DNA of 64,000 nucleotides from Minisyncoccota bacterium (GTDB taxonomy: Bacteria; Patescibacteriota; Minisyncoccia; Phycocordibacterales; Phycocordibacteraceae): positions 14,458 through 78,457 of the forward strand of contig JALHOO010000003.1 of assembly GCA_022842945.1 (NCBI GenBank), written 5' to 3'. The position numbers and the translations under genes were made by a program. Under the pieces are notes generated by a model. The model worked only from the letters and a program-made list of their open reading frames with translations, ran no database searches and was not told the origin of the DNA. This document shows positions 3,488 through 55,470 of this stretch, piece by piece. The first letter of the stretch is position 1. Every line of letters begins with the position of its first letter.

Positions 3488-3540
3488 GTTCCTTAGGTAT
3501 ACCACATGAAGTAGGGGTATCTGCCTGGTACACTATTTGT

Positions 3541-4326
3541 ATGGATATCTTTCTAACCGCGCTTCTGTTTCTGTTCGTATACATGTGTGTGGCATTCGTT
3601 ATATCGCTTATTCGCAAGGACAATGGAACGGCAGACATTGCGTACGGGTGGGGATTTGTATTGGTTGCGTGGACAACGTACCTGCTCGGGAACCCGGGAC
3701 TCGTGGCATTCTTTGCGAGTGTATGTGCAACCATATGGGCAGCACGTCTCTCCATACGCATTTACCTTCGTAACATTGGCAAGCCTGAAGACTTTAGATA
3801 CAAGGAGTGGCGCGAGGCATGGGGGAAGACGTTTGTTCTGCGAAGCTTCCTGCAGGTCTATGTTCTGCAGGGCGCTATTATCTTCCTTGTTGCGCTCCCG
3901 CTCTCGCTTCTGAACGTGTACGGTCCAGGTTCTGCTGTGCCTACGCTCGCGCTTGTTGGGTTCGGGTTGTGGATCATAGGATTCTTCTTTGAGGCGGTGG
4001 GGGACTTCCAGCTGGCTCAATTTTTAAGGAACCCAGAGAGCAAAGGCGCGGTTATGGACAAGGGTCTGTGGCGCTACACCAGACACCCGAACTATTTCGG
4101 CGAGTCACTCATGTGGTGGGGTCTTGGACTCGCAGCGGCCTCAACACTCCTTCCGTTCATTGGTCTAGGAGCACTTGCGGCCTTCATAAGTCCAATCCTT
4201 ATCACGTTCCTGCTTCTTAAGGTCTCAGGCGTGCCTATGCTTGAGAAGCGGTTCGAAGGGAAGCCTGCGTGGGAGGCATACAAGAAAAGGACGAGTGTCT
4301 TCTTTCCGTTGCCGCCGCGCGCGTAA
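3541..4326 (+). CDS. DUF1295 / steroid 5-alpha-reductase / isoprenylcysteine carboxyl-methyltransferase-like membrane protein
   Basis: Polytopic membrane protein with the C-terminal motif WRYTRHPNYFGESLMWWG that is typical of this family. Confidence 0.6.
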   Translation: MDIFLTALLFLFVYMCVAFVISLIRKDNGTADIAYGWGFVLVAWTTYLLGNPGLVAFFASVCATIWAARLSIRIYLRNIGKPEDFRYKEWREAWGKTFVLRSFLQVYVLQGAIIFLVALPLSLLNVYGPGSAVPTLALVGFGLWIIGFFFEAVGDFQLAQFLRNPESKGAVMDKGLWRYTRHPNYFGESLMWWGLGLAAASTLLPFIGLGALAAFISPILITFLLLKVSGVPMLEKRFEGKPAWEAYKKRTSVFFPLPPRA

Positions 4327-21702: not shown

Positions 21703-21717
21703 CAAGAAGTGTAGATA

Positions 21718-21747
21718 GCAAAAGCCGCTCAATTGAGCGGCTTTTGC
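21718..21747 (+). terminator. Rho-independent terminator
   Basis: AAAAGCCGCTCAATTGAGCGGCTTTTGC. Confidence 0.65.
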
Positions 21748-21759
21748 TATTATGTGCAC

Positions 21760-22269: not shown

Positions 22270-22676
22270 GCGAGTACGAGTTTGAACAGATTGCAGAAGG
22301 AGAGTGGGCGCGTATGCCAGAGCGCTTTAAGCGCGAGATTGTGAACGTTGCCCTCCTTATTGAAGACGAGGTGAGTGACGAGATACGTGCGCTCGAGGGA
22401 CTCGAAGAAGGAGATACACTCCTCGGCCTATACCAGGGCATTCCGTTAACCGAGCGCGGAAGCGAGTACGGCATTGGTATGACGATGCCCGACACCATAA
22501 CCCTCTACCGACTACCTATCCTTGAGGAAGCAGAAGAAATGGATAGAGCGTTTAGGGACGCGGTCCGCATCGTTGTACGGGAGACGCTATGGCACGAGGT
22601 TGGACATTACTTTGGGCTTCAGGAACATGCAGTTAACGAGAGGGAGAATGAGGGGACGAATGGGTTCGATACCTAG
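22266..22676 (+). CDS. Zincin-like metallopeptidase family protein (PF06262/Zincin_1-like)
   Basis: 136 aa with the C-terminal HExxH motif TLWHEVGHYFGLQEH. Size and layout are typical of the family. Confidence 0.55.
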   Translation: MSEYEFEQIAEGEWARMPERFKREIVNVALLIEDEVSDEIRALEGLEEGDTLLGLYQGIPLTERGSEYGIGMTMPDTITLYRLPILEEAEEMDRAFRDAVRIVVRETLWHEVGHYFGLQEHAVNERENEGTNGFDT

Positions 22677-22937
22677 TCTGCCAGCAATGAAACTCCCCCG
22701 ATTACTCGGGGGAGGGCTTCAGGTTATTCGGATGAGAGATCGCTAACATCGCTCGTTTCTGGTCTTCCGTAAGCGGCGATGAGGCGCTGTCGGTCGGCAC
22801 GGATCTGCTTCTGAACTGAGGCAGGCGTTGAGCAAGAGGTCTTATGCGATGTGAAATGGCGGCGTGGTCAACGGTACGAGGATGTCTCGCGGTCATGCTA
22901 TTTTCTCCTATAACTACCCGGAGTAACCGTAGCATGT

Positions 22938-22969
22938 ACCAACACGTGTTCCAACATCGCCCCATACAG
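22938..22969 (+). repeat. Degenerate copy of the cassette-boundary element
   Basis: GTTCCAACATCGCCCCATACAGCCAAGCTATA. Confidence 0.6.
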
Positions 22970-22987
22970 CCAAGCTATACTGAATGC

Positions 22988-23395
22988 ATGAGTGAAATCA
23001 AACACATATGTCTTTGTGGCTCCATGTCTGTTCTTCCACGCATTCTGGAAGTTAAAGATACTCTCGAATCAAAGGGTATCATTGTTGAGACCCCTAGTCT
23101 TAATGAGCCGAGCGACTACTCGACACTCTCTGAAGCGGATCGTGCACCTATAAAGACTGAAATGATTAGACGTCATCTGGAACGAATTAAGACCTCGGAT
23201 GCGATTCTTGTAGTGAATGAGACTACAAAGGGGATTGAGAGCTACATTGGTGCAAATTCATTCCTTGAAATGGGTATTGCATTCGCATTTGAGAAGCCAA
23301 TTCTTTTACTGAATTCTGTACCTCAGCAACCTAATCGTGATGAGTTGCTCGGCCTAAATCCAAGGGAACTCAAGGGAGACCTGGATTCCATATAG
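22988..23395 (+). CDS. Cassette gene: flavodoxin-like/SLOG- or nucleoside 2-deoxyribosyltransferase-like small protein (tentative)
   Basis: The 136-aa sequence MSEIKHICLCGSMSV...ILVVNET...YIGANSFLEMGIAFAFEKPI resembles Rossmann-like nucleotide-processing folds. The start is set after repeat copy 2. The stop TAG abuts repeat copy 3. Confidence 0.4.
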   Translation: MSEIKHICLCGSMSVLPRILEVKDTLESKGIIVETPSLNEPSDYSTLSEADRAPIKTEMIRRHLERIKTSDAILVVNETTKGIESYIGANSFLEMGIAFAFEKPILLLNSVPQQPNRDELLGLNPRELKGDLDSI

Positions 23396-23424
23396 ATTCC
23401 AACATCGTCCCAGCCTCCAGCAAT
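23396..23424 (+). repeat. Cassette-boundary element copy 3
   Basis: TTCCAACATCGTCCCAGCCTCCAGCAATC. Confidence 0.85.
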
Positions 23425-24186
23425 CTATAAAATCTTATACAACACTTCGCAGTACTCGAAGTCTGTTCCGAACTGCTCTGATTGTCGTCGAGAGAACTCC
23501 ATGATTCGCGAAGAAAGATCCCCGCCTACAAAAAGCTCAAGTGGCAGTATTTGAGACTTATACATCATTATCGCTTCAGTCTTCTTCAACACTTGCTCTT
23601 TTAAAAGAGGGGCGACTACCGTCTCTGCATTCGCTACGCTTGTTATGTGATCTGCGCTGAGCTTTTCTTGAGGAAGGGTGCAGGCGTACGGCAAGTCCTG
23701 ATATAGGAAGCAATGGACATTTCTGGATACTAAATGCGGAATAGCAGCATGCAAGACCTGCTTTATAAGTCGGTGATCCTGATGCAATTCCAGTCCAGGC
23801 GCATAGAGGTTAAGCTCCCTTTGTCCGCATCCTTCTAGGAAGGAAAGAAGGCCCCGAAGGAGAACTTCTTGAAGTTCTCCTTCGCTTGATCTGCGAAATA
23901 TACTGCTTCGGTATTGCTGGTCTAAGTGTCCCAGATTAACAATCTGTTCCTGCGGAACTCCAAGGAATTCAAGAGCCTGGCTATTTTCTTCTACTCTGGC
24001 TTTGTGCGCTTGATTGCTGTTAAGAAATCCAGAAGAAAGATCCCAGGGAGTGATATGAAGAGTGTCAGGCTTGCCGGCAAAGAATGTTATTACCGTTGAG
24101 ATGGCGCCTTCTTTCGCCAAGAGTCCGCCCAGAGAAAGGACAGCATCATCAAAGTGGGGTGAAAGTATAATGTTATATCTTTCCAT
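23425..24186 (-). CDS. Cassette gene (inverted): PIG-L/LmbE family N-acetylglucosaminyl deacetylase
   Basis: N-terminal ILSPHFDDAVLSLGG (the HxDDxxxG zinc-binding motif) and the downstream HQDH motif. Start is set at MERYNI. Longer starts at 24216 and 24228 would run into repeat copy 4. Confidence 0.7.
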   Translation of the reverse strand: MERYNIILSPHFDDAVLSLGGLLAKEGAISTVITFFAGKPDTLHITPWDLSSGFLNSNQAHKARVEENSQALEFLGVPQEQIVNLGHLDQQYRSSIFRRSSEGELQEVLLRGLLSFLEGCGQRELNLYAPGLELHQDHRLIKQVLHAAIPHLVSRNVHCFLYQDLPYACTLPQEKLSADHITSVANAETVVAPLLKEQVLKKTEAIMMYKSQILPLELFVGGDLSSRIMEFSRRQSEQFGTDFEYCEVLYKIL

Positions 24187-24218
24187 ATCTAGAAGTATAT
24201 ATCTTTCCTTCTGCATGG

Positions 24219-24250
24219 ACTCCAACATCGTCCCAGACTGCCAGCAAAAT
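24219..24250 (+). repeat. Cassette-boundary element copy 4
   Basis: ACTCCAACATCGTCCCAGACTGCCAGCAAAAT. Confidence 0.85.
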
Positions 24251-24268
24251 TAGCCGTATACTTAGAGA

Positions 24269-24718
24269 ATGATCCCTCTCAAGAGGCTTTTATATACGTT
24301 CATCCAACCATTCAGAAAGCTGTATTGGTTTATGGTACGGCCGCATACCTTAGGAGTTAAATGCCTAATCGAACACGAGGGAAAATTTCTTTGCATACGC
24401 AATTCGTACTATCCATATTGGACGCTCCCTGGAGGGGGAGTTGGCAAGAACGAACTACCTAAACAAACAGCCCGAAGGGAGACGCTAGAGGAAGTAGGAA
24501 TTGATGCAGCAGACTGGAAGGAAATAGGAGAGTACCAAAGCAGGCGCGAGCATAAGAAAGATGTTGTGCACTGCTTCTACGTAGAGGTAGAGAGTCCGGA
24601 ATTTCAGATTGATAACGACGAAGTAATTGAAGCTCGTTGGTTCAGTGAAGACGAGATTCCTGAGAACCGATCGTTTGCTGTGGAGGAGGTCCTAGCTCTG
24701 TATGAGGGATCAAGATAA
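24269..24718 (+). CDS. Cassette gene: NUDIX hydrolase
   Basis: Nudix box GGGVGKNELPKQTARRETLEEVGI. Confidence 0.8.
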   Translation: MIPLKRLLYTFIQPFRKLYWFMVRPHTLGVKCLIEHEGKFLCIRNSYYPYWTLPGGGVGKNELPKQTARRETLEEVGIDAADWKEIGEYQSRREHKKDVVHCFYVEVESPEFQIDNDEVIEARWFSEDEIPENRSFAVEEVLALYEGSR

Positions 24719-24740
24719 AGGTTCCAGACTGCCAGCAATA
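24717..24740 (+). repeat. Cassette-boundary element copy 5 (deletion variant)
   Basis: AAGGTTCC-AGACTGCCAGCAATA. It lacks AACATCGTCCC. The deletion is bounded by TCCA microhomology. Confidence 0.8.
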
Positions 24741-24763
24741 CTTTACAGGCTATAATCTCAGTA

Positions 24764-25420
24764 ATGGATTTCGTCGATGCCCTGGCAATAAAGCTCTGGA
24801 ACTATCACCACGTAGGTCATAAGTGGGAGAAAGCGGACATCATCTTTGCGCTCGGAAGTCATGATCTAGGCGTAGCGCGCTTTGCAGCACTCCTGTTCCA
24901 GGAGGGGTGGGCTCCGCTTCTGGCATTTTCGGGAGGCATCGCACATCAGGGTGATTCGTTGCGAACTGGCTGGGACAAGTCAGAGGCTGAGATGTTTGCT
25001 GATGTAGCGATGAGTGTGGGTGTCCCTAAGGAAGAAATCCTTATTGAAGACAGGGCAACAAATACGGGTGAGAACTTCGCGTTCATGGAGCAAGTGTTTA
25101 AAGACCAAGGACTGAATCCCAAGAAAGTAATTCTTGTACAGAAGCCTTACATGGAACGTAGGGCACTTGCCACGGCGCTCGCGCATTGGCCACAAAGAGA
25201 ATTCATTTCAACCTCTATGCCCATATCATTTGAGGACTATACGAGCGGGGATATACCGAAAGATCGCATCATTAACATCATGGTTGGCGATCTGCAAAGA
25301 ATTAAGCTCTACGGGGAAAAAGGATTCCAGGTTCCTCAGGAGATTCCAGAGGACGTATGGGATGCATACGAGAAGTTGGTTCAGTTGGGCTACACCTCAC
25401 ATTTGGTTACTGAAGCATAA
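24764..25420 (+). CDS. Cassette gene: DUF218 (YdcF/SanA-like) domain protein
   Basis: ADIIFALGSHDLGVARFAALLFQEGWAPLLAFSGG matches the DUF218 core. Confidence 0.65.
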   Translation: MDFVDALAIKLWNYHHVGHKWEKADIIFALGSHDLGVARFAALLFQEGWAPLLAFSGGIAHQGDSLRTGWDKSEAEMFADVAMSVGVPKEEILIEDRATNTGENFAFMEQVFKDQGLNPKKVILVQKPYMERRALATALAHWPQREFISTSMPISFEDYTSGDIPKDRIINIMVGDLQRIKLYGEKGFQVPQEIPEDVWDAYEKLVQLGYTSHLVTEA

Positions 25421-25453
25421 AGGTTCCAACATCGTCCCAGACTGCCAGCGATA
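25419..25453 (+). repeat. Cassette-boundary element copy 6
   Basis: AAAGGTTCCAACATCGTCCCAGACTGCCAGCGATA. Confidence 0.9.
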
Positions 25454-25469
25454 ACGCTATACTAGCTAC

Positions 25470-26030
25470 ATGCAATATAAGGCCCTTGTGTTCGACTTCT
25501 TTGGAGTGGTTTGTTCTGAAATATCTCCGTTCTGGTTCGCAGAGCACCTCCCGGATCGCGCAAAAGAACTTAAGCACCAATACCTGCGTCCTGCGGATCA
25601 AGGTGAAGTATCGCAAGAAGAACTATTTAATCAGCTCGCTATGTTGTCCAACCTTCCTGCGGAAGAAATTGAGCAGGACTGGAACGCACGTGCGGTTTTC
25701 AATACAGAGCTCGTAAGCTTCATAAGAGAATTGAAGGGTGAGTATAAACTTGGCCTTCTTTCAAACAGTATGGCTCCGCTCTTTCATACGCTCGCAGAGA
25801 AGGTTAATGTAGCCGACTTATTCGAACAGGTAGCGGTATCGAGCGAGATTGGTCATGCCAAGCCTGAACCAGAAGCATTTCAAGCAATACTGGCAAAGTT
25901 AAGCGTGCTTCCTGAGGAGGCACTAATGATTGATGACAATCAGGTTAATCTTGATGGTGCGAGGGAGATAGGAATGCCAGGATTCCTTTTCACATCAGTT
26001 TCGGGACTGAAGGCTGCATTAGGGAAGTAG
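25470..26030 (+). CDS. Cassette gene: HAD-superfamily hydrolase (subfamily IA)
   Basis: Motif I ALVFDFFGVV (DxD-type), motif II LLSNS, and a C-terminal DD motif. Confidence 0.75.
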   Translation: MQYKALVFDFFGVVCSEISPFWFAEHLPDRAKELKHQYLRPADQGEVSQEELFNQLAMLSNLPAEEIEQDWNARAVFNTELVSFIRELKGEYKLGLLSNSMAPLFHTLAEKVNVADLFEQVAVSSEIGHAKPEPEAFQAILAKLSVLPEEALMIDDNQVNLDGAREIGMPGFLFTSVSGLKAALGK

Positions 26031-26038
26031 GTTCCAAC

Positions 26039-26072
26039 ATCGTCCCAGACTGCCAGCAATAAAATCTGATAC
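26039..26072 (+). repeat. Cassette-boundary element copy 7
   Basis: AGGTTCCAACATCGTCCCAGACTGCCAGCAATAA. Confidence 0.9.
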
Positions 26073-26081
26073 AGTCTAAGC

Positions 26082-26741
26082 ATGCAAAAGGCTTTTATAT
26101 TCGACATGGACGGCGTACTCGCAAATACTGAACCCTATTGGGAGGCCGCTAAAGCCGAGGTCTTCAACGAATTCTTAAATCCATTGGTAGTACAGAAGAT
26201 GGGTCCAACCATGGGCCTCAACATGGATAGTATCTACAATCTCGCTGTAGAATGCGGCGCGTCTTTAGATAAGGAGGCGCTCATCAGCGCCTTTTATGCT
26301 AAAGCACACTGGGTGTATGAGAACGCTGCATTAACGCCTAACGTAGAAGAGTTGGGAAGAGCTCTTCAGCGAATGAACTACGCCATTGCCATCGTATCCG
26401 CATCTCCAACAGATTGGATGAGTACAATTGTTGGCCGGCTTCCATTTCGAGAGTCTATTCGCCATCTAATATCTTTGGAAGACCGAAAGGATCTGGCGCA
26501 CAAGCCTGCGCCTGACGGATATCTTGAGGCTATGAGGGAGCTGGGTTCTGGACCCGAGACAACTATTATCCTAGAGGATTCAAATACCGGCATCGCGTCG
26601 GCAAAAGCTTCCGGTGCCTATACGATCGGACTGCGAGAGAATCTCATTGAGGGATACGTACAGGAAGGCGCCGATACATACGTTGAGAACATGGGAGATG
26701 TACTGCAGATTCTAGAGAATCGAGAAAAGGCCTCGGTTTAG
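26082..26741 (+). CDS. Cassette gene: HAD-superfamily hydrolase, beta-phosphoglucomutase-like
   Basis: AFIFDMDGVLANTEPYW (DxDG motif I), IVSAS motif II, and a C-terminal EDSNTGIASAKASG. Confidence 0.8.
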   Translation: MQKAFIFDMDGVLANTEPYWEAAKAEVFNEFLNPLVVQKMGPTMGLNMDSIYNLAVECGASLDKEALISAFYAKAHWVYENAALTPNVEELGRALQRMNYAIAIVSASPTDWMSTIVGRLPFRESIRHLISLEDRKDLAHKPAPDGYLEAMRELGSGPETTIILEDSNTGIASAKASGAYTIGLRENLIEGYVQEGADTYVENMGDVLQILENREKASV

Positions 26742-26742
26742 G

Positions 26743-26775
26743 AAGGTTCCAACATCGTCCCAGACAGCCAGCAAT
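26743..26775 (+). repeat. Cassette-boundary element copy 8
   Basis: GAAGGTTCCAACATCGTCCCAGACAGCCAGCAATA. Confidence 0.9.
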
Positions 26776-26787
26776 AATATATAAAAA

Positions 26788-26826
26788 AGCGCCTCCTGCT
26801 GGTACATGCAGTTGGCGCTTTCGCTT
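26788..26826 (+). terminator. Hairpin terminator inside the gene-less unit
   Basis: AGCGCC-TCCTGCTGGTACATGCAGTT-GGCGCT followed by TTCGCTTC. Confidence 0.5.
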
Positions 26827-26916
26827 CAGGTGTCTGATGGCCCAGACATTTTCCCCTCAGTCGCTGGTTCTGATAGGCCCCAGTAAGCCATCACCGAATG
26901 AACGACGATGCTAGAA

Positions 26917-26986
26917 CTATACTAGCAGGATATATTTATTTGTCAAGTACAAAAAGTTCTAACATCGTCCCAGACCGCCAGCAATA
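26917..26986 (+). repeat. Cassette-boundary element copy 9, extended version (~70 bp)
   Basis: Shares an extra upstream segment CTATACTAGCAGGATATATTTATTTGTCAAGTACAAA with copy 10. The core is AAGTTCTAACATCGTCCCAGACCGCCAGCAATA. Confidence 0.85.
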
Positions 26987-27044
26987 ACAAAAGCCGCTCA
27001 AAATAAAAGCTAAACGGCTTTTGTCTTTGAACGGCTTAGGGGAA

Positions 27045-27527
27045 TTAACCCCAATAGCTGCAGAGGAGAAGTTCAGGTTCGCGGAACTCGATTCCGGCAC
27101 GTTTGCAGAACGCAGCCAGTTTCTCGCGCCACTCGGGTTTGACCTCAACGCCCTGTCCGAAGGAAAGTGGCGAGCCTCGACTGCTCACGTGGTCGCAGTC
27201 CTTGACGGCGAGAATCCACATGGGGTATTCGCCCGAGCAGTGCTCGACCAGGGTAACACCGAATTCCTCCTCCAGATTCCTTTTCTTGGCCCAGTAATCG
27301 GACCAAGTCTGGGCATACGCAGGATCGGAGTCGTACTTCTCCTTATCGAAGGAGTCTGGCTCCCGGAGACCGACGAGGTTTGCAAGGAAATCCTCGAATT
27401 CCATCGACTCCTCGTCGTCGTCGCCAGGCAGCGTCAGCCATTCGGGTGATTCGCCCTCGACTTCGTCCCCATCTTCATTGTGGATTCGAAAGCCGTAGCA
27501 GAGAATTCCGTTCGTTGAGACGCCCAT
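27045..27527 (-). CDS. Cassette gene (inverted): acidic hypothetical protein
   Basis: 161 aa starting MGVSTNGILCYGF. The gene is GC-richer than its neighbours and is flanked on both sides by extended repeat copies. Confidence 0.5.
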   Translation of the reverse strand: MGVSTNGILCYGFRIHNEDGDEVEGESPEWLTLPGDDDEESMEFEDFLANLVGLREPDSFDKEKYDSDPAYAQTWSDYWAKKRNLEEEFGVTLVEHCSGEYPMWILAVKDCDHVSSRGSPLSFGQGVEVKPEWREKLAAFCKRAGIEFREPELLLCSYWG

Positions 27528-27581
27528 GGCATTTCTCCCTTTAGCTTGTGATAGATCAATTGGCCACAAATAGGCTTGGTA

Positions 27582-27652
27582 CTATCATAGCACGATATTG
27601 CTTATTTTGTCAAGTACAAAGGTTCCAACATCGTCCCAGACTGCCAGCAATA
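27582..27652 (+). repeat. Cassette-boundary element copy 10, extended version
   Basis: CTATCATAGCACGATATTGCTTATTTTGTCAAGTACAAAGGTTCCAACATCGTCCCAGACTGCCAGCAATA. Confidence 0.85.
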
Positions 27653-27670
27653 TTTGGTACACTTTCAATT

Positions 27671-28132
27671 ATGAAATGGGACATTCCGCCAGATATAAAG
27701 ATATATGAAGCGCTGGGAGCAGTTGCCGATGAGCGAGTTAAGGCAGACGAAAATCGAGCCAAAGTTTATTCCTCAAGTGGTAATAAATTCTACGACGTAG
27801 AATATGACGCAGACTCGGGGTCAATCATGACGAACGATAATGGATCGTATTGGAAGGGGTATCTTGGTTATCCAGCCGTTGCGTACTTAATGTCGCTCAG
27901 GGTACTAACATACAACTCTAATCTCGGGAGTTTAATGCAGGGAATCGCCTGGAAGGATCTCAATACCAAGTACAAGAATGATTTTGAGAAGACGCTTGAT
28001 TTCATACTTAAAGACCTACCTATAGGGGCTAAACAGGAGCTTCAGGATTATGTATCCCAGGTTCAGGGAGAGATAGTAAGTCTCGACCTAAGCCTCTTAG
28101 GTAAGAAAACTCTACCGCCGCAGGGATACTAG
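27671..28132 (+). CDS. Cassette gene: hypothetical protein
   Basis: 154-aa ORF starting MKWDIPPDIKIYE, 19 nt after repeat copy 10 and 6-7 nt after a TACACT box. Confidence 0.5.
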   Translation: MKWDIPPDIKIYEALGAVADERVKADENRAKVYSSSGNKFYDVEYDADSGSIMTNDNGSYWKGYLGYPAVAYLMSLRVLTYNSNLGSLMQGIAWKDLNTKYKNDFEKTLDFILKDLPIGAKQELQDYVSQVQGEIVSLDLSLLGKKTLPPQGY

Positions 28133-28171
28133 AAAACCATATACCTTCCTTGCCTCCTAGCTTTAAAAATC

Positions 28172-28214
28172 ACACCTCCAGCTGGTAAGGCTGGAGGTGG
28201 TCGTCTTGTTTTCA
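28172..28214 (+). terminator. Bidirectional hairpin terminator between convergent cassette genes
   Basis: CACCTCCAGC-TGGTAAG-GCTGGAGGTG followed by GTCGTCTTGTTTTC. Confidence 0.6.
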
Positions 28215-28406
28215 GGCATGGCGTGCAATCAGCCCAAGCTCGTGTTGAGAAAGTCCCAGCTGTTCTGCAGTGAGACCGCGTTTGAGATCCTTCTCCAGTC
28301 TTACAATACGAACCGAAGTCTTGTCTCCTGAATGGAGAGCCTGAAGAAGTTCTTGGGCGTTCTCTTTCGCAGCAGCCAGTACGTTTGGCGTAATTGATTT
28401 GGCCAT
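28212..28406 (-). CDS. Cassette gene (inverted): small hypothetical protein (64 aa)
   Basis: MAKSITPNVLAAAKENAQELLQALHSG... on the minus strand between the terminator and repeat copy 11. Confidence 0.4.
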   Translation of the reverse strand: MAKSITPNVLAAAKENAQELLQALHSGDKTSVRIVRLEKDLKRGLTAEQLGLSQHELGLIARHA

Positions 28407-28453
28407 AGTTCTTGTCCCGTGTTGCTCCTAGACAAAACCTAGCACAGTTGCAT

Positions 28454-28487
28454 AAAGGTTCCAACATCGTCCCAGACACCCAGCAAT
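28454..28487 (+). repeat. Cassette-boundary element copy 11
   Basis: AAAGGTTCCAACATCGTCCCAGACACCCAGCAAT. Confidence 0.9.
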
Positions 28488-28506
28488 CATCTGCTCAGGT
28501 ATATAC

Positions 28507-28804
28507 TATAGAAATTATGGAAACCCTCATTGCGAAGATAGTTCTTTGGGCAATAGCGATGTCTATGGTGCTTTTGCTGATAAGAGCCGCAAGAATTGGA
28601 AGAATTCCGGCACTCCGTCCACCTGGAGTTTATTACAAGGGCAAGGAAGGGCGGGTTGATGTGCACAAAGAGCCAATTCTGTTTTGGTTTAATTGCACTG
28701 TGATATTGCTGGTTACTTTAATTGCTCTTGGCATAATCTTTGAGGTACCGTTCTCAATCTTTGATTTTGGAGCAGATGCTGTTGAAGCACTCAATTTGAA
28801 TTAA
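28507..28804 (+). CDS. Cassette gene: small two-TM membrane protein
   Basis: METLIAKIVLWAIAMSMVLLLIRAA...ILLVTLIALGIIFEV. The stop TAA abuts repeat copy 12. Confidence 0.45.
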
Positions 28805-28838
28805 AAAGGTTCCAACATCGTCCAAGACTGCCAGCAGA
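28805..28838 (+). repeat. Cassette-boundary element copy 12 (last)
   Basis: AAAGGTTCCAACATCGTCCAAGACTGCCAGCAGA. Confidence 0.85.
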
Positions 28839-28946
28839 CTTTCTAGTGAGGCCATTTTAGGTGCATTAGCTAGTGGAGGCGCTCTTTCTTACTCAGTCTC
28901 ACTAAAAACAGGTGGTTTAATTTTTCTTGCACGCTATACTTAGCAT

Positions 28947-29147
28947 ATGGAATCACTCATTTCTTTCGTATCAGCACTCACACTCACCCTTACCACGTGG
29001 TTGGGTCTCGTCGAGCAATCAGTAACGAACATTACTGATCTTGGAGCTATTGATGCAACTCTAAATCAACTTACCGAACTGGGTTCTTCGACAATTGAAG
29101 AGCTGGTTGTGGGCGAAGAGGGAAGTGAACCGACCGAAGGGAATTAA
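28947..29147 (+). CDS. Small hypothetical protein (66 aa) downstream of the last repeat copy
   Basis: Preceded by CGCTATACT-N6-ATG, like the cassette genes. Confidence 0.35.
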   Translation: MESLISFVSALTLTLTTWLGLVEQSVTNITDLGAIDATLNQLTELGSSTIEELVVGEEGSEPTEGN

Positions 29148-47687: not shown

Positions 47688-47721
47688 CTGTGCTTTATCT
47701 GAAATCCGTACCATTAGTTTA
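47688..47721 (+). terminator. Perfect 14-bp-stem hairpin (htpX terminator candidate). Its 3' arm contains the first ATG of the homing-endonuclease ORF
   Basis: GAAATCCGTACCAT-TAGTTT-ATGGTACGGATTTC followed by TTCGCTT. Confidence 0.5.
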
Positions 47722-48392
47722 TGGTACGGATTTCTTCGCTTCAGTATCCTAAAAAGAGTCACCGGAAAGTGGTTACACTTCCTGATCCTTCGATTGAGCT
47801 TGCAGAGTTCTTCGGCATCATGATGGGTGACGGGGGAATCAACAATGCGTGGCAGGCGAATATTTGTCTCAACTCAGTTGCAGACAAAGACTTCGTCGTC
47901 TATGTCTGCACAGCTATAAAGAAGCTTTTTGGAATTCAACCATCTGTATTCAAGTGCAAGAACAGCCAAGCTACAAAGATACTCATTTCTAGTGTTGCTC
48001 TTGTCGATTTTTTAGTCGACAAAGGACTTAAAAGAGGAGGCAAGCTCAAAAATGGATTATCTATTCCGGAATGGATACTTGGTAGTACTGAATACAAAAT
48101 AGCCTGTGTGCGGGGACTTATGGATACTGACGGTTGTTTATATATTCACAAGCATACAGTTGCAGGAAAGATCTATAAGAATATTGGTCTTTGCTTTTGC
48201 AGTCACTCACCTGTAGTTATTGCGCAGATATGCGCGGTATTTGAAGAATTCGGCATTATCCCGCATATTAGTAATCAGGGCCGCAGTATCTATCTATATA
48301 AGGAAAGTGCTGTGGCTCGGTATCTTGAGGTGTTTAGTACCTTAAATGAACGTATACGTTCGGTATACAAGAAATTCGGAGGCGTCTCATAG
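47721..48392 (+). CDS. LAGLIDADG-family homing endonuclease (double-motif, free-standing)
   Basis: Two motifs, LAEFFGIMMGDGGI and VRGLMDTDGCLYI. The gene is AT-rich relative to its flanks and its last 15 nt overlap tRNA-Ser. Confidence 0.8.
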   Translation: MVRISSLQYPKKSHRKVVTLPDPSIELAEFFGIMMGDGGINNAWQANICLNSVADKDFVVYVCTAIKKLFGIQPSVFKCKNSQATKILISSVALVDFLVDKGLKRGGKLKNGLSIPEWILGSTEYKIACVRGLMDTDGCLYIHKHTVAGKIYKNIGLCFCSHSPVVIAQICAVFEEFGIIPHISNQGRSIYLYKESAVARYLEVFSTLNERIRSVYKKFGGVS

Positions 48393-54639: not shown

Positions 54640-55470
54640 ATGGGAAGAACAAAGATTCTCATACCTGAAGCTGAGTTGCGACATCTCTATGAAGATGAGC
54701 GTTTATCTCCTGCAAAGATAGCCCAGAAATTTAATTGCACGTCCATAACAATCCGGTCTCGTCTCATTGAAGCGGGAATACCTCTTAAAACTAAAAGTGC
54801 CGCACAGACAAAGTACCCGAAGTATGATTTTGATGGCACTGATCTAGAAAAGGCATACATGCTGGGCTTCAGATATGGAGACTTGAATGTATACCAGCCG
54901 GCAGGTGCCTCAGAGACTATTGTGGTACGGTCACACTCGACACACCTAGTTCAGGGTGATCTTTTTAAGAGGCTGTTCGAACGATACGGAACCATAACGG
55001 TCCATGCAAATGAACGGAGCACCCAAATGAACTGCTATTTAAATTCAAGCTTTAGTTTTCTTCTTAATAAATATCCTCGAGAGATGCGCTCATGGCTTTC
55101 TTCCAACGAGGCATTCCTTTGGGCATTCGCAGCAGGATATAGCGATGCCGAGGGAACATTTGGACTTAATCAAGGCAAGGGACGCTACAAGATTGATTCG
55201 TATGATTTTGAAATACTTTCTGATATCCATTCACTACTTGCCAGGAACGATATACGGACCACTTTTCGTGTAATAGCAAAGAAAGGCGAGAACGATTACG
55301 GTTGGATATGGAAGGAGGATTTATGGAGGTTGTCAGTAAATGAAGCAGGTTCTCTTGAAAGATTGATCTCAAACCTTAAACCGTTCTCACTTCACAAAAA
55401 GCGCGTTAAAGATGCAAATATGGTATTACAGAATATAGCGACCAGAAGACACAATGGAACAATCTCGTAA
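54640..55470 (+). CDS. LAGLIDADG-type homing endonuclease-like protein with N-terminal helix-turn-helix
   Basis: Motifs AYMLGFRYGDLNV and FLWAFAAGYSDAEGTF. N-terminal HTH LSPAKIAQKFNCTSITIRSRLIEAG. AT-rich gene. Its last 17 nt overlap the lepA start. Confidence 0.6.
   Translation: MGRTKILIPEAELRHLYEDERLSPAKIAQKFNCTSITIRSRLIEAGIPLKTKSAAQTKYPKYDFDGTDLEKAYMLGFRYGDLNVYQPAGASETIVVRSHSTHLVQGDLFKRLFERYGTITVHANERSTQMNCYLNSSFSFLLNKYPREMRSWLSSNEAFLWAFAAGYSDAEGTFGLNQGKGRYKIDSYDFEILSDIHSLLARNDIRTTFRVIAKKGENDYGWIWKEDLWRLSVNEAGSLERLISNLKPFSLHKKRVKDANMVLQNIATRRHNGTIS

Follow-up and report, generated by a model that had tools for sequence, protein, structure and literature searches.

We analyze a 64,000-nucleotide stretch of DNA from a Minisyncoccota bacterium (contig JALHOO010000003.1, positions 14,458 to 78,457 of the forward strand; hereafter the window). 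Between its positions 22663 and 28837, 12 sites on the plus strand delimit 11 gene-sized units. Eleven of these sites are copies of one element of about 35 nt, R (AnAAAGGTTCCAACATCGTCCCAGACnGCCAGCAAT), and the first site is of a different type, L (GGTTCGATACCTAGTCTGCCAGCAAT), which resembles the 3' end of tRNA-Gln. Arrays of R are spread through the Patescibacteria. Their units recur in other arrays beside new neighbors, with homology that ends at the element, and orthologous loci differ in the units they hold, which bears out the cassette-array reading proposed in the initial annotation of the window. The tRNA-Gln anchor and the phylum-wide spread go beyond that annotation. The explanation we favor, with rather more confidence than doubt, is integron-like, site-specific capture of cassettes at the tRNA-Gln 3' end by a predicted recombinase that is unlinked to the arrays and encoded in trans.

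With 0–3 mismatches allowed, the 34-mer is found six times in the window and not once in 100 dinucleotide-preserving shuffles; a repeat finder gave the rest. The R cores, counted from the G of GTTCC, start at 22948 (a degenerate copy), 23396, 24219, 25423, 26031, 26746, 26956, 27622, 28458, and 28809. As first described, the twelve direct copies keep a constant orientation, all on the plus strand, and the degenerate copy (core 22948) and the copy with an 11-bp deletion (24718–24741) are both present. The copy taken to be truncated is actually the L site (22663–22690), a distinct site resembling the tRNA-Gln 3' end. The intervals between sites are irregular, at 210–836 bp (200–840 bp in the initial annotation), and plus-strand stop codons finish 0–4 nt ahead of the core (at 23395, 24718, 25420, 26030, 26741, and 28804), in accordance with the description of copies starting at or near stop codons. 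The array is AT-richer than its surroundings, also as described (45–49% GC, versus 52–55% in the flanks), and the cumulative GC skew climbs across it without a switch. ARAGORN and the Rfam families identify no tRNA, transfer-messenger RNA, or other Rfam RNA in the 22–29 kb region of the window.

The content of the array departs from the earlier description in several respects. Eleven units are counted instead of ten cassettes. One gene per unit holds in general, with unit 10 carrying two convergent genes. The unit thought to be empty (26777–26952) holds a minus-strand promoter and, by eye, a hairpin with a T-run. In place of three inverted units there are five minus-strand transcription units (22702–22965, 23425–24228, about 26790–26946, 27045–27569, and 28212–28406). 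The identities given to the accessory genes agree with the Pfam assignments: the matches at the locus are Zincin_1 (just upstream), PIG-L, NUDIX, DUF218, and two HAD, and three proteins have no match. For one cassette protein of the array, no record was found. The sites and units are listed below (ORF, open reading frame).

22663–22690, plus strand: L site (attI/attB-like), GGTTCGATACCTAGTCTGCCAGCAAT(G), a tRNA-less copy of tRNA-Gln from the T-loop to the 3' end; it overlaps the last codons and the stop of the Zincin_1 gene and forms the left boundary of the array.
22691–22941, minus strand: unit 1, reverse cassette with a small ORF (frame 22702–22965; internal ATG after AGGAG), a terminator hairpin at 22693–22714, and a diverged copy (22920–22945) of the leftward promoter module described below, adjoining R1.
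22942–22976, plus strand: R1, degenerate copy (GTTCCAACATCGCCCCATA--CAGCC).
22988–23395, plus strand: unit 2, forward cassette, nucleoside 2-deoxyribosyltransferase/SLOG-like protein of 135 aa, with a Pfam match (Nuc_deoxyrib_tr-like) below the curated cut-off.
23390–23423, plus strand: R2, variant (ATTCC...CCAGCC-TCCAGCAATC) with C for A at +18, as in the homologous cassette of locus L060.
23425–24228, minus strand: unit 3, reverse cassette, PIG-L family deacetylase; likely start ATG at 24185.
24213–24247, plus strand: R3.
24269–24718, plus strand: unit 4, forward cassette, NUDIX hydrolase (Pfam).
24718–24741, plus strand: R4, with an 11-bp internal deletion (AAGGTTCC^AGACTGCCAGCAATA).
24764–25420, plus strand: unit 5, forward cassette, DUF218 (Pfam).
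25417–25451, plus strand: R5.
25470–26030, plus strand: unit 6, forward cassette, HAD hydrolase (Pfam).
26025–26059, plus strand: R6.
26082–26741, plus strand: unit 7, forward cassette, HAD hydrolase (Pfam).
26740–26774, plus strand: R7.
About 26777–26952, minus strand: unit 8, no long ORF; reverse transcription unit at about 26790–26946, with the promoter TTGACA/16/TAGTAT (with TG) at 26946–26919 and, by eye, a hairpin followed by a T-run near 26787–26825; the product is probably an RNA of about 130 nt or a 21-aa ORF.
26950–26984, plus strand: R8.
27045–27569, minus strand: unit 9, reverse cassette, 174-aa protein without a Pfam match, with its own promoter (TTGACA/18/TATGAT, 27613–27584) and a hairpin terminator around 26990–27030.
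27616–27650, plus strand: R9, identical to the consensus.
27671–28406, both strands: unit 10, two convergent genes.
27671–28132, plus strand: forward gene of unit 10, 153 aa, with a 55%-identical homologue in locus L040.
28212–28406, minus strand: reverse gene of unit 10, 64 aa, with a terminator at 28199–28173 and a leftward promoter module at 28430–28454.
28452–28486, plus strand: R10.
28517–28804, plus strand: unit 11, forward cassette, membrane-like protein of 95 aa.
28803–28837, plus strand: R11, terminal copy, ending in ...GCCAGCAGAC; its left part is unaltered, and to the right it departs from the consensus after GCCAGC (AGAC for AAT). We read it as a hybrid of the left part of R with the original flank, and as the right boundary of the array.

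A perfect palindrome of 18+18 nt (ATAGCAAAAGCCGCTCAA/TTGAGCGGCTTTTGCTAT) is located at 21715–21750, preceding the pair of genes that terminates in the L site, and one of its arms is found again directly after R8 (26983–27001); it looks like a shared terminator sequence. Logan contigs of one study (SRR281545xx) carry the units in the same order as the window and stop at identical R copies. Those of L001–L004 and L157–L160, assembled from short reads, terminate precisely where R copies have at least 30 nt in common. Arrays will fragment assemblies in this way, and they may be under-represented or mis-joined in metagenome-assembled genomes (MAGs).

R is not confined to this genome. An exact 18-mer of its core (TCCAACATCGTCCCAGAC) was scanned against one genome per species of the Genome Taxonomy Database (GTDB), and at least 117 stretches matched. 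Among the matches listed, most are in Patescibacteria MAGs (Saccharibacteria, Paceibacterota/Parcubacteria, Nomura-, Wolfe-, Kaiser-, and Berkelbacteria). For further analysis, loci (L numbers) were defined as 8-kb tiles, and neighboring tiles were joined to obtain array lengths; array-bearing tiles total about 0.65 Mb (646 kb). With mismatches allowed, 267 copies of R are found in 91 low-GC tiles, mostly of Patescibacteria, always on one strand within an array and with a median spacing of 549 bp (5–95% range, 282–1209 bp). The longest array, behind a single tRNA-Gln gene in UBA6241 (L071+L105), has at least 14 copies, and that of L016+L087 at least 10. Some genomes contain several arrays, for example LFCR01 and the 640-kb contig JAZKIU010000001.1, and at least one genome contains three, with 7, 10, and at least 6 copies. 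A generic intergenic repeat was the first outcome that would have told against cassettes; the copies in other genomes are again at gene boundaries and in arrays.

In a sequence logo built from 265 distinct copies, conservation begins sharply at −6 and ends sharply at +28 (AnAAAG GTTCCAACATCGTCCCAGAC n GCCAGCAA), with +20 free. The conservation of the flanking positions is independent evidence, since they are outside the search pattern. The left 26 nt are universal, and positions +20 to +27 are genome-specific, reading CCCCCAGC in H51-bin099_1 and the L041 arrays, GGCCAAC in L040, and GATCAGC in L005.

The other matches listed fall mainly in one C5-methyltransferase gene of alphaproteobacterial prophages, where the reverse complement of the core encodes VVWDDVGTF; the few that remain are unrelated singles, for example in Marinobacter, Thermogemmatispora, a spirochaete, and a Bifidobacterium MAG. 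The methyltransferase gene occurs in Rhodobacteraceae and other alphaproteobacteria; it includes AAGGTTCCAACATCGTCCCAGAC, with 23 nt identical to R, and in it VVWDDVGTF lies upstream of the motif GYPCQPFS (L037:941–971 in Maritimibacter; also L009, L021, L036, L047, L097–L099, and L122–L155 of IMG/VR). The match is probably a coincidence, though its five extra matching bases have a chance of about 1%. Carriage of R by phages or plasmids was rejected: 34 of the 35 IMG/VR matches are this methyltransferase gene and one is a chance match, and PLSDB and INPHARED gave none. No published description of R arrays was found in a search that included the R sequence on both strands and had much of the subscription literature outside its reach; one paper on horizontal gene transfer in Patescibacteria makes no mention of tRNA sites or cassettes.

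The motif of the first site in the window (GGTTCGATACCTAGTCTGCCAGCAAT) is seen again, in many genomes, where arrays have their left end. At 15 loci, L is the true 3' end of a tRNA-Gln gene (T-loop, T-stem, acceptor strand, and discriminator; anticodon UUG or CUG according to ARAGORN), and the tRNA, directly at the array start, is intact, as expected of an element with its primary site in the 3' part of a tRNA. Elsewhere, as in the window, L is a tRNA-less copy positioned right at the stop codon of a protein gene. L and R are on the same strand 42 times and on opposite strands twice in the 646 kb. Of 61 evaluable tiles, 32 have an L-type site upstream of their first R and no more than 1300 nt from it. 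R and L have in common the initial GGTTC and the right-hand CCnAGnCTnCCAGCAAT, and differ in the middle (CAACATCGT in R, GAT(C/A) in L).

Two further observations concern the anchor. Tandem partial copies of tRNA-Gln, from the anticodon arm to the 3' end, are located beside the intact gene in L008 (6307–6593, minus strand) and L058 (7040–7195), which suggests use of tRNA-Gln by other elements, too, that cross over at a different position. In L048 (position 4924) and L072 (position 449), from MAGs labeled Saccharibacteria and Paceibacterota, a tRNA-less L at the stop of a conserved HI0933-like flavoprotein gene opens a second array; some secondary docking sites thus appear to be old and conserved.

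The units behave as exchangeable cassettes. In different genomes, homologous cassettes align at the nucleotide level from R to R only, and their neighbors differ (L006/L108, 79%; L015/L113, 88%; L018/L116, 67%). Unit 2 of the window is also present in L060, L161, L162, and L163 (82–90% amino-acid identity), each time with other neighbors; the last three are metagenome arrays. Its nucleotide identity to the L060 cassette is 84%; the L060 array follows dus, dnaX, and tRNA-Gln, and the array in the window follows Zincin_1. A relative of unit 2 with 37% identity is an ordinary gene of the chromosome and has no R near it.

Loci with a common flank differ in the same manner. L006 and L071 align (77%) up to the end of tRNA-Gln and not beyond, their arrays being unrelated. 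L015 and L094 have both flanks in common and contain 7 and 3 copies of R with no cassette shared. L025 holds one 140-nt unit (one R) where L118+L103 holds six cassettes, between flanks that are 92–94% identical. In a saccharibacterial relative of the organism in the window (L074; typA 80% identical in nucleotides), a two-unit array lies between mltG (YceG family) and typA, the position at which the window has another gene and no R. The variability among loci is therefore abundant at the level of units, the opposite of the fixed gene order that had been named as a second outcome unfavorable to cassettes. The cargo is diverse: the 202 in-array ORFs form 189 clusters, and among 145 of them searched with Pfam most have no match, the 51 families matched being mainly small enzymes (methyltransferases, SDR, NUDIX, GNAT, alpha/beta-hydrolases, HAD, and Ham1). 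Exchangeable single-gene cassettes with chimeric end sites, a trait of integrons, are thus found in these arrays.

The position at which cassettes are joined can be approximated from the end sites. The first site of an array consists of the left part of L followed by AGCAAT. Terminal R copies agree with the consensus as well as internal copies do up to +21, and the agreement then decays (terminal versus internal, 0.77 versus 0.90 at +22, 0.54 versus 0.86 at +25, and 0.46 versus 0.73 at +28). In the cassette common to the window and L060, the downstream R carries the same derived variant (C for A at +18), and homology ends at +19/+20; that between L015 and L113 ends at the same position of R. 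On the basis of these homology stops and the hybrid end sites, the left part of R belongs with the cassette before it and AGCAAT... with the cassette after it. The sequences therefore place the breakpoint approximately between +19 and +26, and the crossover would be in or near CCAGC(A/C)A. This segment is also the end of the tRNA-Gln acceptor stem followed by G and CCA. Both versions, CCAGCCA and CCAGCAA, are present at L and at R sites, as expected if the segment is exchanged. Hybrid first and last sites around identical internal sites are the product of attI × attC chemistry in integrons (PMC4889954).

The docking site, the identical internal sites, the hybrid ends, the R-to-R mobility, and the turnover at fixed loci together lead us to favor a recombinase encoded in trans. 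Each unit is a small gene or small transcription unit with the R of about 35 bp behind it. Arrays open with the 3' end of tRNA-Gln or, as in the window, with L as its tRNA-less copy, and grow downstream. In the proposed mechanism, a conservative site-specific recombinase, most likely of the tyrosine type and encoded elsewhere, would excise a cassette circle by recombination of R with R, and the same enzyme would put circles into L or into any R. The crossover would fall within the short CCAGC(A/C)A common to R and the end of tRNA-Gln (acceptor-stem end, discriminator, and CCA), and the approximately 28 nt to its left (AnAAAGGTTCCAACATCGTCCCAGACnG), which would move with the upstream cassette, could serve as the recognition arm. 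An empty site, with L joined straight to the right flank, would be predicted to read ...GGTTCGATACCTAGTCTGCCAGC|AGACTTTCTAG.... The circular intermediate, the type of enzyme, its chemistry, and its action in trans are what we infer from this arrangement. It is about an even bet that Patescibacteria own a phylum-wide capture system of this kind, integron-like in function and made of different parts: an unstructured, sequence-conserved 35-bp site that stems from the 3' end of tRNA-Gln or is matched to it, docking at that end or at copies of it, and an unlinked recombinase that is possibly of a new type or a housekeeping enzyme.

Several observations weigh against a recombinase-driven system. As stated in the initial annotation, no recombinase is found in the 64-kb window, either with motif regular expressions, with phmmer using the Xer-like protein of L024, or in two Pfam runs on the larger ORFs outside the array, which gave no transposase family either. 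The sole tyrosine recombinase found in the approximately 0.65 Mb of array-bearing tiles is the Xer-like gene beside the last R of L024. Neither a circular cassette nor an exact empty site was seen. R lacks the dyad symmetry usual for the core sites of tyrosine and serine recombinases, and only its left side is conserved. The genome-specific, homogenized positions +20 to +27 may stem from gene conversion or from a resident repeat being copied. R is on no viral or plasmid record of IMG/VR, PLSDB, or INPHARED beyond the coincidental matches. Finally, the evidence is mostly from MAGs, in which repeats can be mis-assembled, and Logan contigs break at identical R copies.

A recombinase linked to the arrays was sought with regular expressions, BLAST clusters, Pfam, phmmer, and inspection of large inter-repeat intervals, and this candidate was rejected. 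With Pfam, 128 flanking and 145 in-array ORFs yielded no recombinase family among the 25 most frequent, nor is there one among the Pfam labels of Logan contig L157, which corresponds to about 28.5–36.6 kb of the window. The largest recurrent BLAST clusters of 1253 ORFs look chromosomal (by eye, dnaX, dus, and a flavoprotein), and Pfam confirmed DNA_pol3_delta2 and HI0933_like among the recurrent flanking ORFs. In L007 (1932–3206, minus strand), directly after the last R, lies a gene for a reverse transcriptase with an apparent CHC2 primase-type zinc finger fused to it; RVT_1 matched 2 of the 128 flanking ORFs. The window itself contains a free-standing gene with a LAGLIDADG_3 Pfam match and a region that is helix-turn-helix-like by eye at its N-terminus (54640–55470), and a similar-looking ORF without a Pfam match (47721–48392), both outside any rRNA gene. 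LAGLIDADG-type enzymes recognize long asymmetric sites.

The main rival explanation involves no dedicated recombinase. R would be a portable 35-bp homology block, cassettes would arrive by competence-mediated uptake and RecA exchange between R copies, and R would stay conserved as the commonest flank spreads best. The missing link between any array and a recombinase fits this explanation, as does the homogenization of +20 to +27 within genomes, which gene conversion would give; that R is subject to ordinary errors of recombination or replication is evident from R4 and its 11-bp microhomology deletion. In addition, transformation is in use in Saccharibacteria, and competence genes are, to our knowledge, near-universal in bacteria of the candidate phyla radiation (CPR). 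We nevertheless consider this rival unlikely. Thirty-five base pairs is at the lower limit for RecA-dependent exchange, and a first insertion at tRNA-Gln or L would find similarity over about 17 nt on one side only, although dozens of loci have arrays that start there. Moreover, terminal R copies are truncated at a consistent place instead of at random, and the sharp edges of conservation with one free position have the look of a protein footprint.

The array-specific right part of R could also be accounted for by insertion with duplication of the target, in which R is copied from the resident array by a Cas1 or casposase acting as in CRISPR adaptation, by a target-specific transposase, or by repair of a homing-endonuclease break. 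R has the length of a CRISPR repeat, the arrays are unidirectional with a degenerate terminal repeat, and the free-standing LAGLIDADG-type gene in the window would be a candidate enzyme. This explanation is improbable in our judgment. The derived variant in the left part of R, common to homologous cassettes of two genomes, argues that this part travels with its cassette, the first site is of the L type and not R, and no cas1, transposase, or endonuclease gene is associated with the arrays among the frequent Pfam families.

The layout of transcription within the arrays bears on a third rival, a role of R in expression alone. The 179 intervals comprise 101 with a forward ORF, 68 with a reverse one, and 10 in which no ORF reaches 40 aa (ORF-less units similar to unit 8 are seen in L024, at 3500–3780, and in L025). 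In forward cassettes, the stop codon, mostly TAA or TAG, is 0–5 nt before the core in 42 of 101 cases, the ATG follows R at a median distance of 31 nt, and there is no terminator of their own. An extended −10 element (TGnTAnAnT; TATACT in the window) precedes the ATG by 6–8 nt, which implies leaderless mRNAs. Boxes of the TATACT/TATAAT type 6–8 nt before an ATG, with no Shine-Dalgarno sequence, are seen throughout the window (e.g. 28931–28949, 24255–24271, and 25454–25472), which suggests that leaderless mRNAs are common in this organism.

In reverse cassettes, the space behind one R can accommodate a terminator and that ahead of the next R a promoter. Twenty-three of them, unrelated to one another (e.g. 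in L015, L103, and L108), have in common a leftward promoter module of about 33 nt directly left of R, with the consensus TCTrGACAGAACsTAsCATAnnTTGCAkAAAG. Its −35 element, TTGGAA, is the reverse complement of the GGTTCCAA of R, and a spacer of 17 nt separates it from TGcTAGGTT. Two copies of the module lie in the window (22920–22945 and 28430–28454), and its sharing by unrelated genes may bear on how cassettes are made. Overall, forward cassettes are compact, their stop overlapping or adjoining the A-rich left edge of R and their presumably leaderless ATG a few nt after the extended −10, and have no terminator; reverse cassettes bring a full promoter and a hairpin terminator, often with the −35 supplied by R itself.

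A reading of R as only an intergenic expression signal (a promoter, terminator, insulator, or RNA-processing site) with no part in gene movement finds support in the −35-like TTGGAA of its reverse complement, exactly 17 nt from a conserved extended −10 in those 23 cassettes, in the lack of terminators in forward cassettes, and in the C-rich, unstructured sequence of R, as in rho-utilization (rut) sites. The orientation of R is fixed whatever the direction of the gene, however, and next to reverse cassettes R is outside the transcript, between the promoter and the neighboring unit. Its distance to the forward −10 varies, roughly 0–17 nt among the copies in the window as read from the sequence, and its near-identity across classes is far above that of promoters or rut sites. 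R as a sigma-54 or extracytoplasmic-function sigma promoter was rejected on the lack, by eye, of consistent hexamers, and the variable distance means that R is no fixed component of the forward promoters. The R-to-R homology blocks, the tRNA-Gln anchor, and the hybrid ends would be left unexplained, and we regard a pure expression signal as improbable too.

A canonical integron, or a cluster of attC sites lacking an integrase (CALIN) with its integrase elsewhere, would explain the diverse, mostly single-gene cassettes of obscure function and the chimeric end sites, but can be practically dismissed, since R is 35 nt long, lacks the R''-L''/L'-R' inverted repeats, and is no more stably folded than shuffles, no IntI or other tyrosine recombinase is nearby, the cassettes have their own promoters and are reversed in 38% of cases, and the anchor is a tRNA gene. 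In particular, R with its flanks, folded as single-stranded DNA on both strands, gives −2.1 to −5.1 kcal/mol (z from −1.3 to +0.35 versus shuffles). The absence of an attC-like dyad noted in the initial annotation is thereby confirmed, and the identity of R as attC is refuted.

The CPR/Patescibacteria make up a large share of bacterial diversity and have tiny, host-dependent genomes in which gene gain and shuffling are poorly understood. A conserved cassette system, if true, would explain hypervariable regions in these genomes, and in at least one genome of roughly 1 Mb, that with three arrays, a visible part would consist of exchangeable single genes. R and L provide a simple sequence tag for accessory genes in MAGs, and identical R copies account for assembly breaks. 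An R-flanked marker might serve as a docking site for genetic tools in transformable Saccharibacteria. If the recombinase is new, or a recruited housekeeping enzyme, a distinct mechanism would be added to the few known cassette systems.

Among known systems, integrons and CALINs are the closest in function. They too have unidirectional, mostly single-gene arrays with a conserved end site, a different start site, and chimeric first and last sites; the cargo is likewise diverse and obscure, the sites are homogeneous per genome, as in sedentary chromosomal integrons, and there are reversed cassettes with their own promoters. However, attC is 57–141 bp long, conserved in structure, and folds into a bulged hairpin, whereas R is 35 bp, unstructured, and conserved in sequence. 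Integron arrays start at attI beside intI, and R arrays at the tRNA-Gln 3' end with no linked integrase; R sites not being attC, the definition of a CALIN does not apply either. In place of promoterless cassettes read in one direction from a Pc promoter, forward and reverse units have promoter elements of their own. In addition, genomes of about 1 Mb, as these hosts have, are not where an integron would be expected; very small genomes reportedly lack them (PMC4889954).

The docking at a tRNA resembles that of tycheposons, the tRNA-targeting integrative islands of Prochlorococcus (bioRxiv 10.1101/2020.12.28.424599), and of other tRNA islands, accretions of integrase-less islands included: integration at the tRNA 3' end leaves the tRNA intact, older units are pushed downstream, and the regions are hypervariable in streamlined genomes. 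Such islands, however, are multi-kb elements, about 1–2 per genome, with their own tyrosine or serine recombinase, often replication genes, and flanks of partial tRNA. R units are single genes of approximately 0.3–1.2 kb without a recombinase, in arrays that reach at least 14 units. We found neither an element-encoded integrase nor partial tRNA repeats bounding the units: only GGTTC and the right-hand 17 nt or so of R are similar to tRNA, so that R is not a tRNA fragment.

Modules without a recombinase are known from elements that use the Xer system. IMEX elements and pdif modules are often single-gene modules at short conserved sites, are moved in trans by chromosomally encoded XerC/D, and form tandem arrays at a primary site; in these respects they are like R arrays. 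A dif-type site is a 28-bp dyad in which two inverted arms of 11 bp surround a 6-bp center, and in pdif modules its orientation alternates. R has no inverted arms and a single orientation, its primary site is a tRNA 3' end and not dif at the terminus, and no GC-skew switch accompanies the array. The arrays of staphylococcal cassette chromosome (SCC) elements at the 3' end of rlmH (orfX) are similar in that direct repeats bound tandem units next to a conserved gene, at its 3' end, and that some of the units lack the recombinase and are mobilized in trans. Unlike R arrays, SCC units span several kb to tens of kb, some encode Ccr serine recombinases, and the core is 15–18 bp.

CRISPR arrays have repeats in the same range (28–37 nt), a single direction, and a degenerate terminal repeat. 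Their spacers are about 30–40 nt, accompanied by a leader and cas genes, whereas those of R arrays are expressed genes of 200–1200 bp (median spacing 549 bp), the first site differs, and variants in the left part of R travel with the cassette; no Cas family is among the 25 most frequent of the 165 Pfam families of the flanking ORFs. As cassette arrays probably built by site-specific recombination, R arrays have a realistic chance of being mechanistically new.

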